Made by a program: the position numbers and the translations under genes. From Candidatus Cloacimonadales bacterium (GTDB lineage: Bacteria > Cloacimonadota > Cloacimonadia > Cloacimonadales > JAIOQZ01): a stretch of 64,000 nucleotides of DNA. The stretch lies in the NCBI GenBank assembly GCA_963662655.2, contig CAXXTU010000002.1, positions 1,472,001 through 1,536,000 of the forward strand. The letters run 5' to 3'. This document shows, in pieces, positions 34,271 to 41,755 of the stretch. Under the pieces are notes generated by a model. It did no database searches. It saw nothing but the letters and a program-made list of their open reading frames with translations, and had not been told where the DNA came from. Within the stretch, counting starts at the first letter, position 1. Each line of letters starts with the position of its first letter.

Positions 34271-35617
34271 GGCACTGTTGCATATTAAGTGGGTGAATGG
34301 GTATTCAGATATCCGCAACATTGCAGAACCTTCAATCTGAAGTATGAGAAGTCCTTGTATCCATACGCTCTCTTTATAATGGTTCGAATGACGTTGTTAA
34401 CCGCTTCTGCCTTGGCATTCGTGATTCTATGCTTGAACCAGTTCAACACAATATGCAATCTCTTCATAATCGTTCTTGCAAGTGCCTTCAGTGGCTCGAA
34501 GACGGTTTTCTGAATAACTCTGCACCACTCTTCAATCATCGGCTTCGCTTCTTCTTGCGTAATATCGTCTTCGAAAATCGATAGTAAATCTTCTTTGAGC
34601 AAATAGGCTTCGTAAAGGGGATGATTTAGCGTCTCCAGTTTCTTGAGTCGGGCTTGATGGTTTTCTTTGTGATTGTGTTTTCTGGTCAAAACCAACCACC
34701 GGTCGTGTTTCTTGCTCTGACGCAACTTGTCAGATTCAAAATCTCTCTGAAGTTCTCGTCGTACTTCTTCCACTTTCCTGTTGACCAGGCGGCTGAAATG
34801 GAAACGATCAAATACGATCATATCGGCACTCCAACACTCGGAAACAGCGCCGATATATGAACCACTGAAATCCATTGTTACGGTATCAATCCAGCGGAGT
34901 CGTCGTTCGTATTTTCGAAACAACTCCTTCGCACTTTCTTTCGATTTGCCCATTGTCAGGTCGATCACACGCCCGTCCTCATGGTTTGTGATAACCGTTG
35001 CATACTTATGCCTTCGCTTATAACCAATCTCGTCAATTGCAATCTGATCGACATTCGGAACTCGTCCTCTATAACCCTTTTCCAACTTGGATAACTCAAT
35101 TTTGTCGATTCGATAAATCGTACTCCGATCCACACCGAATATCCGTGCTACAGAAGCATTGTCTGAACGAAGCGTGAACTGGAGAACCTTATTGCCGAAG
35201 TCTTTAGAGTGTCGATTGAGACCCTCGGCAATATCCTGTTGTTCAGTTTTCACTCCACACTGAGCGCAGTTGATCCGGCGAAGCGTTAGCACAAGTACTA
35301 CGGGACGACAGGATATGGATGCATGAAGAATTTTGCGGACTCGATGATCATAAACTGTTCCCACAATACCGCATGTAGGACAACGTGGCTCATCTTCCTT
35401 TCGAACATGGACTTCAATGCATGGATAAGTTTGATACGTACCTTCGATTATCTGGTCGGCAGAATAACCTTGCAAAGCCAACAACGTTTTACAGACTTGT
35501 TTTCTGAGAGGATCATTCATCTCTATCTCCTTGTTGTGGTGATTAGGAGATTGTACGAGATCGGGTGATTCCTCTCAATCTTTTTTTCGACTTACCCACT
35601 AAGTTTGCAACAGTGCC
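34271..35617 (-). mobile_element. ISL3-family insertion sequence, complete (1347 bp)
   Basis: Terminal IRs GGCACTGTTGCATATTAAGTGGGT and GGCACTGTTGCAAACTTAGTGGGT match at 21/24. Flanked by A8 (34263-34270) and A9 (35618-35626), consistent with an 8-bp AT-rich TSD. Visibly more AT-rich than its neighbours. Confidence 0.93.
34285..35520 (-). CDS. ISL3-family transposase
   Basis: Zn finger (CPTCG...CAQCG), HTH, and DDE motifs 'IAIDE', 'TMDF', 'FDRFH', 'NAKAEAVNN...AYGY'. Confidence 0.95.
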   Translation of the reverse strand: MNDPLRKQVCKTLLALQGYSADQIIEGTYQTYPCIEVHVRKEDEPRCPTCGIVGTVYDHRVRKILHASISCRPVVLVLTLRRINCAQCGVKTEQQDIAEGLNRHSKDFGNKVLQFTLRSDNASVARIFGVDRSTIYRIDKIELSKLEKGYRGRVPNVDQIAIDEIGYKRRHKYATVITNHEDGRVIDLTMGKSKESAKELFRKYERRLRWIDTVTMDFSGSYIGAVSECWSADMIVFDRFHFSRLVNRKVEEVRRELQRDFESDKLRQSKKHDRWLVLTRKHNHKENHQARLKKLETLNHPLYEAYLLKEDLLSIFEDDITQEEAKPMIEEWCRVIQKTVFEPLKALARTIMKRLHIVLNWFKHRITNAKAEAVNNVIRTIIKRAYGYKDFSYFRLKVLQCCGYLNTHSPT

Positions 35618-35651
35618 AAAAAAAAACCGCCACCTCGTTCGAGATGGCGGC
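35618..35651 (-). terminator. Rho-independent terminator of the dsbD-Omp28 operon
   Basis: On the minus strand, the GCCGCCATCTCG-AA-CGAGGTGGCGGT stem is followed by a U-tract (A9 on +). Confidence 0.8.
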
Positions 35652-35674
35652 TACAATGTGCAGTGTAGTTTGAC

Positions 35675-37921
35675 CTATTTGATCAAAGCCATTTTATGAA
35701 CGGCTGTTCCCTTGGAGGATGTAAGTCTTGCGAAATACACGCCGCTGGAAACAGATTTTCCGTTATCGTCCATACCGTTCCATACAACCGCTTCGCTTTC
35801 AACAACATCGTTGTCGATCAGCGTTCGAATCACCTGACCCCTGATATTGTAGATCGCCAGCGTGACCGGTTCGTTGGAAGGAATGCTCATGGCGATGGTT
35901 GTTTCCGGGTTGAACGGATTCGGGTAAACGCTCAGAGAGACGCCCGTTACCTGCGGAGCGGATGGATCGCTCTCGTTATCGAGATATTCGTTACCCATTC
36001 CACCGTACGCGCCCATATCGGTTGTCAGCGTTCCCATAGCAGGCCACAGCGGTAATCCTGAGTTGTCCGGATCCTCGACATCCATGTGCTCGCCTTCAGG
36101 ATCACCGGCATCGATACAGGGTGAATCTTCCGAGAGGTACCACTCGACGTTGAACAAGTTCTCGATGAGACCAACCTCGGTTGAGGCATTGGTGAACATC
36201 GGATCTCCGTCGATGTTTCCGGTTCCGTCGTAACCACCGGAAACACAGTTGTACGTGGCATAGAAATCGCCGAAGAGATCGATCAGCGGTTCGTCTTCGC
36301 CAATGATGATGTTATTCACCAGGTCCATCTCGGATTCGTAGAGGAAGATCGCTGCACCGGTGCTTCCGGTACAAAGATTGTTCGCGATCGTGTTGTTGAC
36401 CACAACCGGATATGAATCTTCGCGAACGCTGATTGCGGCAGCCTGGCTACCCTGATTGTTCACAATAATGTTATTGTAAATCTCGGGAGTCGAATTCACG
36501 ATGCCGAATGCACCTGCGACCGAGCCGCCATCGTTGTTACCGATAAAACACTGTTTCACGGAAACATTGTCGGAATTGACGATGTGAATCGCGCCTGCCT
36601 GCGTTGAGCCGGAGTTGTCGACAAAGCGACACTTCTGGATATCCACGCTTGAGTTGCTGATCAAAATCGCGCTCTCCTCTGCATTGTAAAACTGGCAGTT
36701 GAAGACGATCGACTCGAATGCGTTGGAATCGATGAAGTCGAGACCATTCCATACGTTACGATCCGTTGTCGAGAAAACAATCGGGTCGTCGTCTGAAGCG
36801 TCGGCAACAAGCGTTCCTTTAACGATCATTCCAATGCCGTTCTGGCTCGTGATTGTCGTTCCCGGTTCAATGACCAGCGTCGCGCCGACAGGAACGGTTA
36901 CATCGCCAATCATGTGATAATTGCCGTATTGGGGATCCCAATGACCCGCGACCGAGCCATAGATATTCCCTGTATCCTGAACGTAGATGTAATCCTCGGC
37001 GGTCTTGGTGTCCGTTTCTTCACCGTCGGAAACGGTGAGACTTACCGTGTAGACGCCAGGAGTCGTATAAACCCATGCAGGATTCTCTTCTTCACTGTCA
37101 ATATTGCCATCACCATCGAAATCCCATTCCCAGGAGATGATTCCTCCCGGAGGCATGGAAAGGCTGGTGAACTGGACGTCAAGAGCAGGTGGACCCATCG
37201 TGATATTAGCGGAGAAATTCGCACCGAATTGCGCCATTTCGCTGATCGCAGCCTGATGGATAACCTTGTCGCCATTGAGGGTCTGAATCAGCACAACGCC
37301 GCGAAGATCGTCAACGCTGTCGTAGTCGAAACCACTGTCGAGGGTTGCGGTGAAAGTTCCGGAATCACCGGAAGCGGTAAGCCCGAAATCCTGTGCTTCG
37401 TAACGACGTACCACGCAGAAGTAGTCGTTCGTGTAACGTTGGGTCACGATGAAGATTATTTTGTTGTTGGAAGTTGTGATGTCCGCCGTCAAAGAGACAC
37501 TGGCTTGCAGCAGGAAGTTGAGATCCTCGTCCTGCATGAAAGCCATGGTGATCTCAGCCGGAGCATCGTCATCGATGACCTGATTGTAATCGGAAACGTA
37601 ACGGGGGTAAGTCGTTCCGCCGCCCCCATCTTCGATGTATCCACCGAATTGGGCATGCGGGATACCGCTTACTCCATACATGCTGCCACGCGAACTGTAG
37701 TTCGGGCTCGTGGGGCATGTCGTTTCGTTTGTTCCACCATTCCAGATCAAGGGAACCACGTTCTCGTGGTTCTCGAATAATTGAAGCAGCCCAGACCGAG
37801 CTGCGGGGCAGTAGCTGCACCATGTTTGCGTAAACACTTCGCCGACTACCTGTATCTGTGTAGCCAGAGCAAGCGTTGACGCAAGGAGCAGCATTAAGAA
37901 GACGACTAATCTTCTTGTCAT
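35675..37921 (-). CDS. Secreted Omp28-like thioredoxin-fold (WCSYC) + PKD + beta-helix protein with FlgD-Ig/T9SS-like tail
   Basis: Signal peptide, 'EVFTQTWCSYCP', cis-Pro 'GIPHAQF', PKD 'WEWDFDGDG...YTTPGVYTVSLTV', Asn-rich beta-helix repeats, and 'YPNPFNPETTI...KMALIK'. Confidence 0.85.
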   Translation of the reverse strand: MTRRLVVFLMLLLASTLALATQIQVVGEVFTQTWCSYCPAARSGLLQLFENHENVVPLIWNGGTNETTCPTSPNYSSRGSMYGVSGIPHAQFGGYIEDGGGGTTYPRYVSDYNQVIDDDAPAEITMAFMQDEDLNFLLQASVSLTADITTSNNKIIFIVTQRYTNDYFCVVRRYEAQDFGLTASGDSGTFTATLDSGFDYDSVDDLRGVVLIQTLNGDKVIHQAAISEMAQFGANFSANITMGPPALDVQFTSLSMPPGGIISWEWDFDGDGNIDSEEENPAWVYTTPGVYTVSLTVSDGEETDTKTAEDYIYVQDTGNIYGSVAGHWDPQYGNYHMIGDVTVPVGATLVIEPGTTITSQNGIGMIVKGTLVADASDDDPIVFSTTDRNVWNGLDFIDSNAFESIVFNCQFYNAEESAILISNSSVDIQKCRFVDNSGSTQAGAIHIVNSDNVSVKQCFIGNNDGGSVAGAFGIVNSTPEIYNNIIVNNQGSQAAAISVREDSYPVVVNNTIANNLCTGSTGAAIFLYESEMDLVNNIIIGEDEPLIDLFGDFYATYNCVSGGYDGTGNIDGDPMFTNASTEVGLIENLFNVEWYLSEDSPCIDAGDPEGEHMDVEDPDNSGLPLWPAMGTLTTDMGAYGGMGNEYLDNESDPSAPQVTGVSLSVYPNPFNPETTIAMSIPSNEPVTLAIYNIRGQVIRTLIDNDVVESEAVVWNGMDDNGKSVSSGVYFARLTSSKGTAVHKMALIK
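37786..37819 (-). promoter_or_regulatory. SECIS-like hairpin downstream of the catalytic TGC codon (possible vestigial SECIS)
   Basis: TGC AGC TAC TGC CCC GCAGCTC-GGTCT-GGGCTGC: a 7-bp stem with a GGUCU loop 19 nt after the first CxxC codon. Confidence 0.55.
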
Positions 37922-38014
37922 CAAGTTCCTCCTTACTATGCTGTTTCTTTTTCAAGAAATCATCTCTCTCTATCGTAACGAATAGCTTTTTAAGGATCTG
38001 TCGGAACTGCCGGA

Positions 38015-40258
38015 TTACTTGATAAGAGCCATCTTGGCAGTCACGGTACGGGTGTCCGTCGTCAGCCGCGCGAAGTAAACACCGCTCGAGACCGGTTTCC
38101 CCGCCTCGTCGATGCCCTTCCACACAAGGTTGAGCGATTCGGTTCTTTCGTTCTCCAGGAGCGTGCAAACCTTCTGGCCGCGAATATTGTAAATCGCCAG
38201 CGTCACCGGCTGCTTGCTCTCCTGCGCACTAAGCTTAAGCGCGATGGTCGTCTCCGGATTGAACGGGTTCGGGAACACGCTCAGGGAGATTATGTCCGCA
38301 GAAGGCGCGACCGTCTCGTCGTCCGTATCGATGTATGGAGCTCCATGACTTCCGCCATAAGCGCCCATATCATTGGTGAGAGAGCCCATTGCAGGCCAAA
38401 GTGCGTATCCAGTGTTGTCGGGATCTTCCACATCGTAGTAATCATCCCCTGGATTCCCAGTATCGATGCAGGGCGAGTCCTCTTGCAGGAACCAGCGTCC
38501 GCCGGTACCGTCGTAGTCCACGCCGCTACCGCTGCTGGGATTCGAGAAGAGCGGGTCCGCGTCGATGTTCATGGTTCCGTCGTGGCCTCCGGTGATGTTG
38601 CAGAAATCAACCGTGGGCGTGCTGTTGAGCGCGTAAATGATCGGCTCATCGCCGCGGAGAATACAGTTCATGATCTGCGGATTGGCGTTGAAAGCGAAAA
38701 GCGCGCCACCCGTTGCGCCGGTGATTGTGTTGTTCACCACCGTGTTATTGAAAAATTCCGGCACACTCTGGTTTTTGAACACCACTGCGCCTCCGGACAT
38801 CCCCGTGTTGTTCGCGAAGACATTGTTCGTGATCACCGGCGAGGATGATGAAAGCTGGATCGCACCTGAATTGCCGGTACTGGAGTTGTTGGCAAACAAA
38901 CTCCCGGTAATCGACACATCGGATGCGCTGATCAGATCGATCGCCGCCGGCGTGCTTGTGCTGTGGTTGTCATAGAACACGCAGCCGTCCACTTCGAGGC
39001 TCGAGTCATCGACGACGATCGCGGTATTGGTTGTTCCGGAGAACCGGCAATTGACCAGTTCGTTATCCCGATCGGTATAGCGAACCTTCATTCCTTTCCA
39101 GGTTCCGCCGTCTGCGGCACGGAATACAATCTGATCGCCGTTTCCGCCGTCTGCGACGAGCCGGCCGTTCACTTCAAAGGTCGCGTCGTTAGAAAGGACG
39201 ATCTCCACACCCGGATCGATTGTCAGTACCTGGCCGTCCTCGACGATCACATCGCCTACGATCTCGTAGGGGTTATATGTCGTGAGCCAGCTACCCGCAA
39301 CGGGGCCGGACGTGTTGCTGCCGTCAGTTACGGTAATCAGGCCCTGGGCGTTCGTCGTAGCGCTTTCGCCATTTGCGTGAATGGTGAGCGAGACGTCGTA
39401 GACACCCGGTGTGTCGTATATGTGGAACGTACTTTCGTCTTCGCTGTCGATGACTCCATCACCGTCGAAATCCCATTCCCAGGCAGTGATTTCACCCACG
39501 GGGAACGAAAGGCTCTGGAAGCTTACGGTAAGCTGCGCTGGGCCTTCGGTGATGCTCGCGTCGATAACGGCAAGCATACCGGTGAAAGGAGTCGAGACAG
39601 CCTGATAGACCTGGTGGTTTCCTGTGAAGCTCTGCACGATGACAATCGCGCGGACGCCCTGAAGGTCCCAGGATGCATCGAGTTCGACGGGGTGTTCAAA
39701 GTACCCGGTCTCACCCGTTTCGTTCAGGGTAAAGGTCTCATCCGCATAGTCTACGACAGTACAAAAATACTCGTCTGTAAAGGCGTTCGTAAGAATGTAG
39801 ATGATACGGTTGTTGGTCGTGGTGATGTCCCCGGTCATCTCGACATTCGCCATGATGGCGAGCTGCCCCAGGTCGTTGGTTCCCAGGTCGATGTCGATCG
39901 CGACGGGAGAGTTATCGTCCACGATGGAGTTGTAATGGCTCAAGTAACGGGGATAGGTTGTTCCGCCGCCAAGATCGTTAATGGCCCCCCCGAACTGCGC
40001 TGATGGCAGCGACGAGATTCCATACATCGATTTTCTTGAACCGTTGTTCGGGCTTGGATGTTGTCCATCTCCTTCCCAAATTAGTGGAACGACATGTTCG
40101 TTCTCTTCGAATAATTGAAGCAGCCCAGACCGAGCTGCGGGACAGTACGGGCACCATGTTTCCGTGAACACCTCCGCCAGTACCCCGATCTGTGTCGCTT
40201 GTAGCAGCAACGCCGAAAGAAGCATCAGCAGGAGGAGTAATAATCGATTGGATTTCAC
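38015..40258 (-). CDS. Secreted Omp28-like thioredoxin-fold (WCPYC) + PKD + beta-helix protein with FlgD-Ig/T9SS-like tail (tandem paralog)
   Basis: Same architecture as 35675-37921, with 'EVFTETWCPYCP'. GTG start after GGAGG. Confidence 0.85.
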   Translation of the reverse strand: MKSNRLLLLLLMLLSALLLQATQIGVLAEVFTETWCPYCPAARSGLLQLFEENEHVVPLIWEGDGQHPSPNNGSRKSMYGISSLPSAQFGGAINDLGGGTTYPRYLSHYNSIVDDNSPVAIDIDLGTNDLGQLAIMANVEMTGDITTTNNRIIYILTNAFTDEYFCTVVDYADETFTLNETGETGYFEHPVELDASWDLQGVRAIVIVQSFTGNHQVYQAVSTPFTGMLAVIDASITEGPAQLTVSFQSLSFPVGEITAWEWDFDGDGVIDSEDESTFHIYDTPGVYDVSLTIHANGESATTNAQGLITVTDGSNTSGPVAGSWLTTYNPYEIVGDVIVEDGQVLTIDPGVEIVLSNDATFEVNGRLVADGGNGDQIVFRAADGGTWKGMKVRYTDRDNELVNCRFSGTTNTAIVVDDSSLEVDGCVFYDNHSTSTPAAIDLISASDVSITGSLFANNSSTGNSGAIQLSSSSPVITNNVFANNTGMSGGAVVFKNQSVPEFFNNTVVNNTITGATGGALFAFNANPQIMNCILRGDEPIIYALNSTPTVDFCNITGGHDGTMNIDADPLFSNPSSGSGVDYDGTGGRWFLQEDSPCIDTGNPGDDYYDVEDPDNTGYALWPAMGSLTNDMGAYGGSHGAPYIDTDDETVAPSADIISLSVFPNPFNPETTIALKLSAQESKQPVTLAIYNIRGQKVCTLLENERTESLNLVWKGIDEAGKPVSSGVYFARLTTDTRTVTAKMALIK
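40120..40153 (-). promoter_or_regulatory. SECIS-like hairpin downstream of the catalytic TGC codon (second copy)
   Basis: TGC CCG TAC TGT CCC GCAGCTC-GGTCT-GGGCTGC. The hairpin is identical to that of the paralog. Confidence 0.55.
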
Positions 40259-40310
40259 TCCAGCCTCCTTTTATTTTCGGGTTCTATCAATGATCTATTA
40301 TGGTATTCAG

Positions 40311-41693
40311 TTACTTCAATAGAAGCATCTTCTTCGCGGCAGAGCTCTGCTCGCCTTCCAGACGATAATAATATACACCGCTTGTTACCGGATTGCCATA
40401 ACTGTCCTTGCCATTCCAGGACACAGAGCCTTTACCCTGATTGACGCTCAGGTTGTCGAACGATTTTACCAACTGACCGCGAACGTTGTAAATGGACAGC
40501 TTTGTGTTGCGAACATTGTCCGTCGGGAGCGAGAAATGAATCTGCGTCTCCGGATTGAATGGATTCGGAGTGTTTTGCGCAAGCTGCACGCCGCTGTAAG
40601 GCACGGTATCGTCTCCGGCGGCGGAACCGGTCTCGTAGGTGAAGTTCAACACAATCGCCTCACTATGTGAAGGCTGAATGGTGAAATTGAAATCCGCCGT
40701 ACCGTTGGAGCTAACGTTCGGAATCAGGAAGTCGAACGCGATCTGCTCGCCCTCGCCAAGCGTGAATTCCCAGGCTCCGCCTGTGGAAGGATGACAACCG
40801 CCCTCTCCATCGGCATACGTATGACAGAACATGACCATCCAGCTATCGGGAACGGAGTTGTACTCGAGGGATGCTGAATAGGCATGCTCGGAGCCGTAGT
40901 TCTTCAGGTAGAATTTTTCGCTGGTGAACTCGTAGACCTCGCCGGTGTATCCGGGACCAACCACGTTGAAATCGAACGGAACGCCGACCCGGCAGGTTAC
41001 TTCGTCCATCGGGTAGGTCGAAGCAGACTGAATGATGGAATGATCCGAAGCCTGCACGTATACGACGACCTGAAGGTTCGTGCTCACCCATCCGCTATCG
41101 ATGGTAAAGCCGTCGATGAGCGTCTGCTGAGAGCCCTGACCAGTCATGCTGAAATCCTGTGTCAGCACCTGACGAGTTACGTGATCGATGCCGTCAATAC
41201 CGTCTTCAACAAGGATGAAGCGAACGTATCCATCCATGATCTCGAACTCGTCCGAGAGCATGGTCACGGTGGCAGCTACGTCGCCGCTCGATGCGTCAAA
41301 ACCGTCGATTTGCAGCTCGATGGGGGCTGTGTTGTATTTTCCAAGATCGATGACTCCCGCATAAGCTGAGCCGTTCGCAACATGATCACCGCCACCAAAA
41401 ATCGTGGTAGACCCGTCGAAGATCGCCATTGGGAAGTCGATCACCTGATAGAAATCGATCATGGCCTGGGTGTCGTCGTTCCCCATATCGCCATGATAAT
41501 GTTGAGCAAGCGAGAAATTTGCCGGAGAATATGACTCGTCAATTACTCCAATACCATCGTTCACGTCTTGCGTTTGAGTTGAAGATGCGTCGTTCAGGAC
41601 CTCGATCATCATGATCTGCGGCGTTCCGGTGAACTCGGCAAAAAGGCCGGTTGCAACCAGTAGCGCCAGCAACAATATATTCACACGTTTCAT
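40311..41693 (-). CDS. Secreted Omp28-like protein lacking CxxC, with an Ig-like Cys-pair domain and FlgD-Ig/T9SS-like tail
   Basis: 'MMIEVLND...QHYH...FYQVIDFPMAIFDG...VRFILVED...VVVYVQ' gives an Omp28-like pattern. Also 'WMVMFCHTYADGEGGCHP' and 'TPNPFNPET...KKMLLLK'. Confidence 0.75.
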   Translation of the reverse strand: MKRVNILLLALLVATGLFAEFTGTPQIMMIEVLNDASSTQTQDVNDGIGVIDESYSPANFSLAQHYHGDMGNDDTQAMIDFYQVIDFPMAIFDGSTTIFGGGDHVANGSAYAGVIDLGKYNTAPIELQIDGFDASSGDVAATVTMLSDEFEIMDGYVRFILVEDGIDGIDHVTRQVLTQDFSMTGQGSQQTLIDGFTIDSGWVSTNLQVVVYVQASDHSIIQSASTYPMDEVTCRVGVPFDFNVVGPGYTGEVYEFTSEKFYLKNYGSEHAYSASLEYNSVPDSWMVMFCHTYADGEGGCHPSTGGAWEFTLGEGEQIAFDFLIPNVSSNGTADFNFTIQPSHSEAIVLNFTYETGSAAGDDTVPYSGVQLAQNTPNPFNPETQIHFSLPTDNVRNTKLSIYNVRGQLVKSFDNLSVNQGKGSVSWNGKDSYGNPVTSGVYYYRLEGEQSSAAKKMLLLK

Positions 41694-41755
41694 TTTGTCC
41701 TCCATGTATCTTGTAATTCAATTTATCTCATTTCAAGTCTTTTTATATATCCAAG

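Follow-up and report, generated by a model that had tools for sequence, protein, structure and literature searches.

Two tandem genes on the minus strand of a 64,000-nucleotide stretch of the genome of a Candidatus Cloacimonadales bacterium (contig CAXXTU010000002.1 of assembly GCA_963662655.2, positions 1,472,001 to 1,536,000; hereafter the window), designated A and B, encode type IX-secreted, HBP35-like thioredoxin-fold proteins that are putative selenoproteins. A hairpin behind the TGC codon of cysteine 36 (Cys36) in each gene is probably a live selenocysteine insertion sequence (SECIS) that recodes UGC to selenocysteine (Sec). The first-pass annotation of the window had taken the hairpin for a fossil SECIS left behind by conversion to Cys, but because the selenocysteine tRNA (tRNA-Sec) of this genome (G000) reads UGC, both proteins are probably selenium-containing rather than fossils. 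Comparison with related genomes suggests that the Sec codon has most likely moved from UGA to the Cys codon UGC in this lineage.

According to the mechanism proposed here, SerRS would serylate tRNA-Sec(GCA), and SelA, with selenophosphate made by SelD, would turn the serine into Sec on the tRNA. When a ribosome meets the UGC codon, SelB-GTP with Sec-tRNA-Sec(GCA) would dock on the GGUCU-loop hairpin, and Sec would go in at residue 36 in competition with Cys-tRNA-Cys on EF-Tu. The secreted thioredoxin-fold domain would act with a selenol at the attacking position of its UxxC motif. A missed insertion of Sec at UGC would result in a full-length Cys protein and no truncation.

Selenocysteine tRNAs and the codons at selenocysteine sites

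The selenocysteine machinery that the first-pass annotation had named as something to look for is present: G000 possesses selA, selB, two selD genes and one tRNA-Sec. The tRNA-Sec gene (C2:1968905-1968999; Rfam score 54.5 bits, cut-off 47) is located directly upstream of selA and selB (starting at 1969047 and 1970438 of C2, respectively). Its anticodon loop is CU-GCA-AA according to the Rfam alignment and ARAGORN, and the anticodon GCA pairs with UGC. No tRNA-Sec(UCA) was found by ARAGORN among the 51 tRNAs of G000, which also include an ordinary 74-nt tRNA-Cys(GCA).

Homologues of the N-terminal 203 residues of B were sought in six frames of 232 genomes of the phylum. Matches were found in 199 of these genomes, many with exactly one in-frame TGA, and 75 domains were extracted from the matching genomes for comparison of codons and hairpins. 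In 41 of the 75 domains, an in-frame TGA behind a signal peptide stands exactly at the first Cys of the motif (W-U-G-Y-C-P or W-U-P-Y-C-P), as expected from the prediction of the first-pass annotation that relatives encode secreted UxxC selenoproteins. The TGA forms have a hairpin on the codons for P-x-A-R-x-G/A-L with a covarying stem (GCU..GGG, GCC..GGG, GCG..GCG), in which a Gly/Ala replacement is offset by the third base of an Ala codon. The apical loops start with G, as is usual for bacterial SECIS elements (GG or GU): GGUCU in A and B, and GGUCG, GGGCC, GGGCU or GGUC in relatives. One subfamily, corresponding to one family of genomes, has a shifted hairpin (GAACA-GGUC-UGUUC or CGAGCA-GGUC-UGCUCG; L069-L072, L043 and L065-L067) with its loop on a Gly codon, 28 nt from the UGA. 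Because relatives have an in-frame TGA at the same codon followed by a covarying hairpin, these comparisons indicate that the hairpin behind the first Cys codon is a SECIS, a claim of the first-pass annotation that is thus upheld. In members of the family from the lineage of genome G194, Arg is replaced by Gln in the loop (AGGCU or AGUUR).

Families with TGA forms possess selB; in one large family no genome has it (0 of 98). The outgroup order has TGA forms only. All four species of the genus are Cys-coded in both the A lineage and the B lineage, and each lineage has TGA forms of other families as its nearest neighbours in the domain tree; these lineages are old, and the recent conversion to Cys that had been proposed therefore does not fit. 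The domain tree needs at least nine changes between TGA and TGY, of which strongly supported branches force two; the number and direction of switches are not fixed by it. A protein-database search for truncated TGA forms, which is silent on the annotation of TGA forms, returned ten relatives, all of them full-length TGC forms annotated as plain Cys proteins.

The tRNA-Sec could be read in 39 genomes, of which 16 have only the GCA type, 19 only the UCA type, and four have both; the 20 carriers of tRNA-Sec(GCA) are distributed over seven families. The bodies of the two types are near-identical (long variable arm, 7/5 structure, G73 and encoded CCA) and differ essentially in the anticodon. The sequence ...CCUCUC-R-G-CCA, making the discriminator G73, ends 38 of 39 tRNA-Sec, and all 16 GCA-type tRNA-Sec of which the 3' flank was read end in ...R-G-CCA (G73). 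With the anticodon masked and six rows dropped, 37 of the 43 tRNA-Sec sequences gave a poorly resolved tree, which allows between one and six anticodon switches. Of the 16 GCA-type tRNA-Sec with flanks read (including L011:1501-1595), 14 have a C1-A72 mismatch as their first acceptor pair; the UCA type has A-G, U-G, A-U, A-A, U-A or C-A there.

The anticodon of tRNA-Sec tracks the codon of the A/B family in 34 of the 35 genomes with a single tRNA-Sec type. The 16 GCA-only genomes contributed 23 family members, every one with TGC or TGT at the site; TGA members occur in 18 of the 19 UCA-only genomes, the exception being G141, which has TGT without the hairpin. The four genomes with both types, G115-G117 (UCA type L086, L092 and L101; GCA type L117-L119) and G127 (L085 and L120), all possess two selB genes, and the UCA-type tRNA adjoins the second selB in the three genomes of the same genus, G115-G117.

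A switch between TGA and TGY with retention of the hairpin was found at five Sec sites: those of the A/B family, SelD, FdhA, a type IX secretion cargo protein of 945 aa and a protein with DUF1573 and rhodanese domains. Comparison with other selenoprotein genes, as the first-pass annotation had suggested, thus extends the pattern beyond A and B. In four UCA genomes the codon of the stand-alone SelD is TGA; in G000, G120, G137, G164 and G117 it is TGC or TGT (TGT in G117 and G164), and a hairpin follows that is conserved and shows compensatory changes. In the stand-alone selD of G000 (L009, C2:852617-853540, minus strand), TGC at the G-x-G-U/C site is followed by GUUAGGAC-CGUGU-GUCUUAAC; the fused selD of G000 (L008) has no such hairpin. 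In three UCA genomes FdhA has TGA followed by GUAGCC-GGUCU-GGCUGC, with the GGUCU loop of A and B; the GCA genomes G137, G120 and G122 have TGC or TGT ahead of the same hairpin. FdhA was not found in G000 and was compared in relatives alone; GrdA was found neither in G000 nor in 11 of the 12 relatives tried.

An unbiased strict scan of G000, which required a GGUC-loop hairpin with a stem of 6 bp or more behind an in-frame TGY or TGA, identified seven TGC candidates, including A and B, and one TGA candidate. Two further TGC candidates were compared across genomes, and both have TGA at the same codon in UCA genomes. The first (L157:136-2973, plus strand, TGC at 2369847 of C2) encodes the 945-aa cargo protein with the motif W-C-T-G-C, the second Cys codon (TGC) of which precedes CAGUGC-GGUCG-GCACUG and is TGA (CxxU) in G162, G177 and G172. 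The other (L159:254-1300, minus strand, TGC at 3071798 of C2) encodes the 348-aa protein with DUF1573 and rhodanese domains, in which the site T-C-G-C-T has TGC with a hairpin in G000 and TGA in G162, G177, G128 and G172. Another candidate of the strict scan, L158, has no Pfam match.

The hairpin in A and B and the alternatives to recoding

The 35-nt identity between A and B reported by the first-pass annotation, with its GGUCU-loop hairpin behind TGC, was confirmed in genes whose products are just 46.6% identical (345 of 740 residues; DNA 1228 of 2220 positions, 55.3%). On the minus strand the tract encodes P-A-A-R-S-G-L-L-Q-L-F-E in both genes, and the next-longest identical run is 19 nt. 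At identical degenerate residues, the two genes share 11 of 12 codons within the tract and 140 of 320 (43.8%) outside it, and the probability of 11 in a row is approximately 1e-4; five other blocks of 9-12 identical residues have just two to seven codons in common each. The 19-nt hairpin GCAGCUC-GGUCU-GGGCUGC has a stem that begins 12 nt past the TGC and a loop that begins at nt 23 (counted from the U of the codon), a position within the range for a bacterial SECIS (stem-loop on the 3' side of the codon, at roughly 11-37 nt). The isolated 19-mer folds with -10.4 kcal/mol (z = -3.4; one of 200 shuffles equally good). The identity of the tract and the hairpin are real and exceed chance.

Sequence comparison also indicates that the hairpin is under selection within the TGC lineages. 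Among 27 TGC-form sequences the proportion of paired cells is 94.2%, no shuffle out of 500 reaches the covariation score of 0.42, and both sides have changed in three of the seven pairs; slid controls pair at 35-42%. The hairpin is better kept in these sequences than in the TGA forms, in which 67.8% of cells pair in the A/B register and some subfamilies are in the shifted register. The first Cys codon is TGC in 26 of the 27, and the second is TGC in 10 and TGT in 17. Among the four A orthologs, six of seven hairpin codons are identical versus 44 of 121 elsewhere (p = 0.014), and in families f7 and f11 three of five are identical versus none of 33 elsewhere (p = 0.001). The selB-less family served as a negative control: in five of its genomes the homologues have CxxC, yet no more than one to four of the seven pairs can form.

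Several observations weigh against live recoding in A and B. The 54-nt context of the hairpin has z scores of -0.76 in A and -0.77 in B, and the minimum-energy fold of this 54-nt window in gene B is another structure. Compared with synonymous recodings of the same peptide, which have a simulated mean of -7.3 to -8.0 kcal/mol versus -11.8 observed, the hairpin gives p = 0.064 and 0.092 for the two genes. Since thermodynamic support within these genes is weak, the case for the hairpin rests on comparative data. No Rfam family matched positions 35600-40300 of the window at E <= 10, a result of little weight because sequence models cover bacterial SECIS elements poorly. The synonymous constraint on B orthologs is not significant (three of five codons versus 37 of 105, p = 0.25), and a stem mismatch is present in the B orthologs of three sister species. 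In members of family f13, Gln replaces Arg in the loop. Genome G001 keeps a similar stem with an A-starting loop though it has no selB at E <= 1e-60, and G194 has tRNA-Sec(GCA), yet its SelD and FdhA (L139 and L152) have TGC without a hairpin. A loose genome-wide scan of G000 (stem of at least 6 bp, loop starting with GG or GT), later replaced by the strict GGUC-loop scan, found no enrichment behind TGC (129 of 18091, 0.71%, versus 0.65% for all codons). With respect to the tRNA, the GCA anticodon is itself an identity element for CysRS, according to PMC5389517, and tRNA-Sec(GCA) could be partly cysteinylated despite G73. Ordinary tRNA-Cys also reads UGC, and the share of Sec at residue 36 could be small.

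Some of these observations would suit a fossil SECIS, that is, a decaying relic held in place by the amino acid sequence alone in plain Cys proteins whose UxxC ancestors changed UGA to UGC. TGA forms are widespread and alone represented in the outgroup order; the peptide A-A-R-S-G-L is partly self-complementary at the codon level, so that recodings fold too; and both the stem of the selB-less G001 and the mismatched B orthologs could be expected of a relic. However, the anticodon of tRNA-Sec is GCA, selA, selB and selD are intact, and anticodon and codon agree in nearly all genomes with a single tRNA-Sec type. The hairpin is kept better in TGC than in TGA forms, with compensatory changes and synonymous constraint on its codons, the same codon switch has taken place in SelD, FdhA and two more families, and the real Cys forms (G141 and family f3) have lost the hairpin. 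A fossil element, as the first-pass annotation had it, is accordingly improbable.

Selection on the hairpin in TGC genes could also be explained if it were kept for a role other than insertion, such as titration of SelB or a ribosomal pause about 40 codons into a secreted protein, with residue 36 remaining Cys. The hairpin occupies codons 41-47 of genes for signal-peptide proteins, and a SECIS-like element without UGA regulates the selAB operon of Escherichia coli. A role of this kind would account neither for the change of anticodon to GCA in exactly the genomes with TGC forms nor for the same pattern in the cytoplasmic proteins SelD and FdhA, and it is considered highly improbable.

The identity of the 35-nt tract, as distinct from the hairpin, might be due to a short A-to-B gene conversion in this species, which would fit a live or a fossil SECIS alike. 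Over these 35 nt, B of G000 equals A, and its closest B ortholog (in the sister species G117) differs from it at six positions; P-A-A-R in B of G000 corresponds to P-D-A-R in the B orthologs of all three sister species; the genes are tandem neighbours; and the identity extends 14 nt past the hairpin. On the other hand, the hairpin sequence is the same in all four A orthologs and nearly the same in G164, a near relative of the B clade, and an ancestral sequence retained in both genes under selection for SECIS function fits as well. In addition, the B ortholog of G117 has most of the downstream LLQLFE codons in common with B of G000. Gene conversion is therefore a possible but rather doubtful origin of the tract.

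Protein architecture and neighbouring genes

A and B share one architecture (Table 1): a signal peptide, a thioredoxin-fold U/CxxC domain with a beta-sandwich, a PKD domain, a right-handed beta-helix, and a C-terminal sorting domain for type IX secretion. Pfam matches are PF13229, PF18911 and PF18962 in B, and PKD, NosD-like and PF18962 in A; the scores of PF18962 and TIGR04183 exceed their cut-offs in both proteins. No Pfam family matched the approximately 200 N-terminal residues of either protein. For the mature N-terminal part of B (204 residues), an AlphaFold2 model built on 36 homologues has a predicted local distance difference test score (pLDDT) of 95.8. The modelled order of elements is beta-alpha-beta-alpha-beta-beta-alpha, with CxxC at the start of helix 1 and the beta-sandwich following. 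Its top matches in the PDB are 5y1a (HBP35; E = 5.9e-10, template modelling score 0.72) and 2axo. The signal peptide, the type IX sorting domain and the HBP35-like thioredoxin-fold U/CxxC domain together suggest that A and B are most likely surface-exposed thiol/selenol oxidoreductases.

Table 1. Positions of genes A and B and of their features in the window
Feature	Position	Strand	Remarks
Gene A	35675-37924	-	749 aa; W-C36-S-Y-C-P; open reading frame; same architecture as B
Sorting domain of A (residues 666-745)	35690-35929	-	PF18962 and TIGR04183
35-nt tract in A	37773-37807	-	identical to 40107-40141
Putative SECIS hairpin of A	37786-37804	-	sequence identical to hairpin of B
TGC codon of Cys36, gene A	37817-37819	-	proposed Sec codon
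Gene B	38015-40258	-	747 aa; W-C36-P-Y-C-P; open reading frame
Sorting domain of B (residues 661-743)	38030-38278	-	PF18962 and TIGR04183
Mature N-terminal 204 residues of B	39584-40195	-	predicted thioredoxin fold, then beta-sandwich; AlphaFold2
35-nt tract in B	40107-40141	-	codons P40 to E51 (last partial); identical to 37773-37807
Putative SECIS hairpin of B	40120-40138	-	7-bp stem, GGUCU loop; fold and pair counts on 27 TGC-form homologues
TGC codon of Cys36, gene B	40151-40153	-	proposed Sec codon; TGA in relatives with tRNA-Sec(UCA)

The NCBIfam model NF045500 ('Omp28-related selenoprotein') scores 52.4 bits with A and 47.3 bits with B, far short of its cut-off of 200 bits. In both proteins the N-terminal 200 residues match model positions 37-270 of 377 (E = 5e-14 for A and 1.8e-12 for B). 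TGA forms from relatives also align to NF045500, so a related selenoprotein family has already been curated. A and B, which have approximately 750 aa and additional PKD, beta-helix and sorting domains, are not members of NF045500 and form a sister family to it.

Also in tandem with A and B is a third paralog (464 aa; window 40311-41705, minus strand), which has a type IX sorting domain and weak similarity to Omp28 and NF045500; it lacks CxxC at the equivalent position and looks redox-inactive. Directly on the 3' side of gene A, at 34285-35520 on the minus strand, is a 411-aa open reading frame that appears by eye to be mobile-element-like. A third member of the family in G000 (L003:1111-2118, minus strand, on C2) is a short form of 335 aa in which a GGDYS insert comes after C-T-G-C; downstream is AGCGC-GGUCG-GCGCU, the loop of which begins 26 nt from the second Cys codon (TGC).

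Known recoding systems and significance

Recoding of Cys codons to Sec is known. PMC8124441 and PMC10778597, citing Mukai 2016, state that some bacteria recode UGC or UGU to Sec with anticodon-variant tRNA-Sec, and PMC10778597 reports experimental confirmation of UGU recoding in Aeromonas salmonicida. The system described here resembles that of Mukai 2016 in the match of the tRNA-Sec anticodon to a Cys codon, in the SECIS behind the codon and in the presence of SelA, SelB and SelD. It differs from the UGU recoding of Aeromonas in belonging to another phylum, in its type IX-secreted targets, and in the four genomes with both UCA-type and GCA-type tRNA-Sec. A 'Cloacimonetes type tRNA-Sec' is attributed to Mukai 2016 in PMC5330540, and the 7/5 tRNA-Sec with G73 found here matches it. 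Literature searches on selenocysteine in Cloacimonadota, Omp28 selenoproteins and tRNA-Sec GCA, which did not cover Mukai 2016 itself, returned nothing relevant. Because recoding by anticodon-variant tRNA-Sec has already been published, A and B are probably further cases of this known kind; the A/B genes and the secreted family appear to be new, and perhaps also the scale of recoding and the genomes with two tRNA-Sec types.

Other known systems resemble individual parts of this one. The SECIS of E. coli fdhF has a GGUC loop at about the same distance from its codon as the hairpin of A and B. Both the fdhF type and the hairpin described here lie directly on the 3' side of the codon, and their GGUC(U) loop falls at about nt 22-27; the differences are that the codon here is UGC rather than UGA and that the stem is a simple helix of 7 bp. 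In its thioredoxin-fold CxxC domain, beta-sandwich and type IX C-terminal domain, HBP35 of Porphyromonas gingivalis (5y1a) resembles A and B; the sequence identity is only 14%, and HBP35 has neither PKD nor beta-helix and is a Cys protein for which no SECIS is reported. Thioredoxin activity of HBP35 and its secretion through the Por/type IX secretion system are described in the abstracts of PMC2907840 and PMC3120885. SelC* tRNA-Cys is like the tRNA described here in being tRNA-Sec-like and able to carry a GCA anticodon; its 8/4 structure, its discriminator U73 (an identity element for CysRS) and its charging with cysteine are given in PMC5389517. A SelC* identity of tRNA-Sec(GCA) was considered and rejected on account of its G73.

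In nature, sense codons are rarely reassigned to selenocysteine, with one case experimentally confirmed in the accessible literature, which does not describe recoding on this scale, dual-system intermediates or secreted targets. Tentatively, several families of the phylum may have moved their whole selenoproteome from UGA to UGC/UGU, and the genomes with two types of tRNA-Sec may be living intermediates of this reassignment. If so, these genomes would constitute a natural system for a gene-by-gene handover of codons without lethal intermediates, because a missed UGC gives a working Cys protein. Selenoproteins encoded by UGC or UGU would be missed by all predictors based on UGA and be listed in databases as ordinary Cys proteins; because of this likeness to plain Cys proteins, the selenoproteomes of the phylum would be under-counted. 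A practical lesson is that the anticodon of tRNA-Sec should be checked before a conserved SECIS behind a Cys codon is labelled a fossil.

To our knowledge, few extracellular selenoproteins of bacteria are known, although NF045500 points to a related family. Selenoproteins with signal peptides and type IX sorting domains, if A, B and their relatives are indeed such, would put selenol chemistry on the cell surface of anaerobes.

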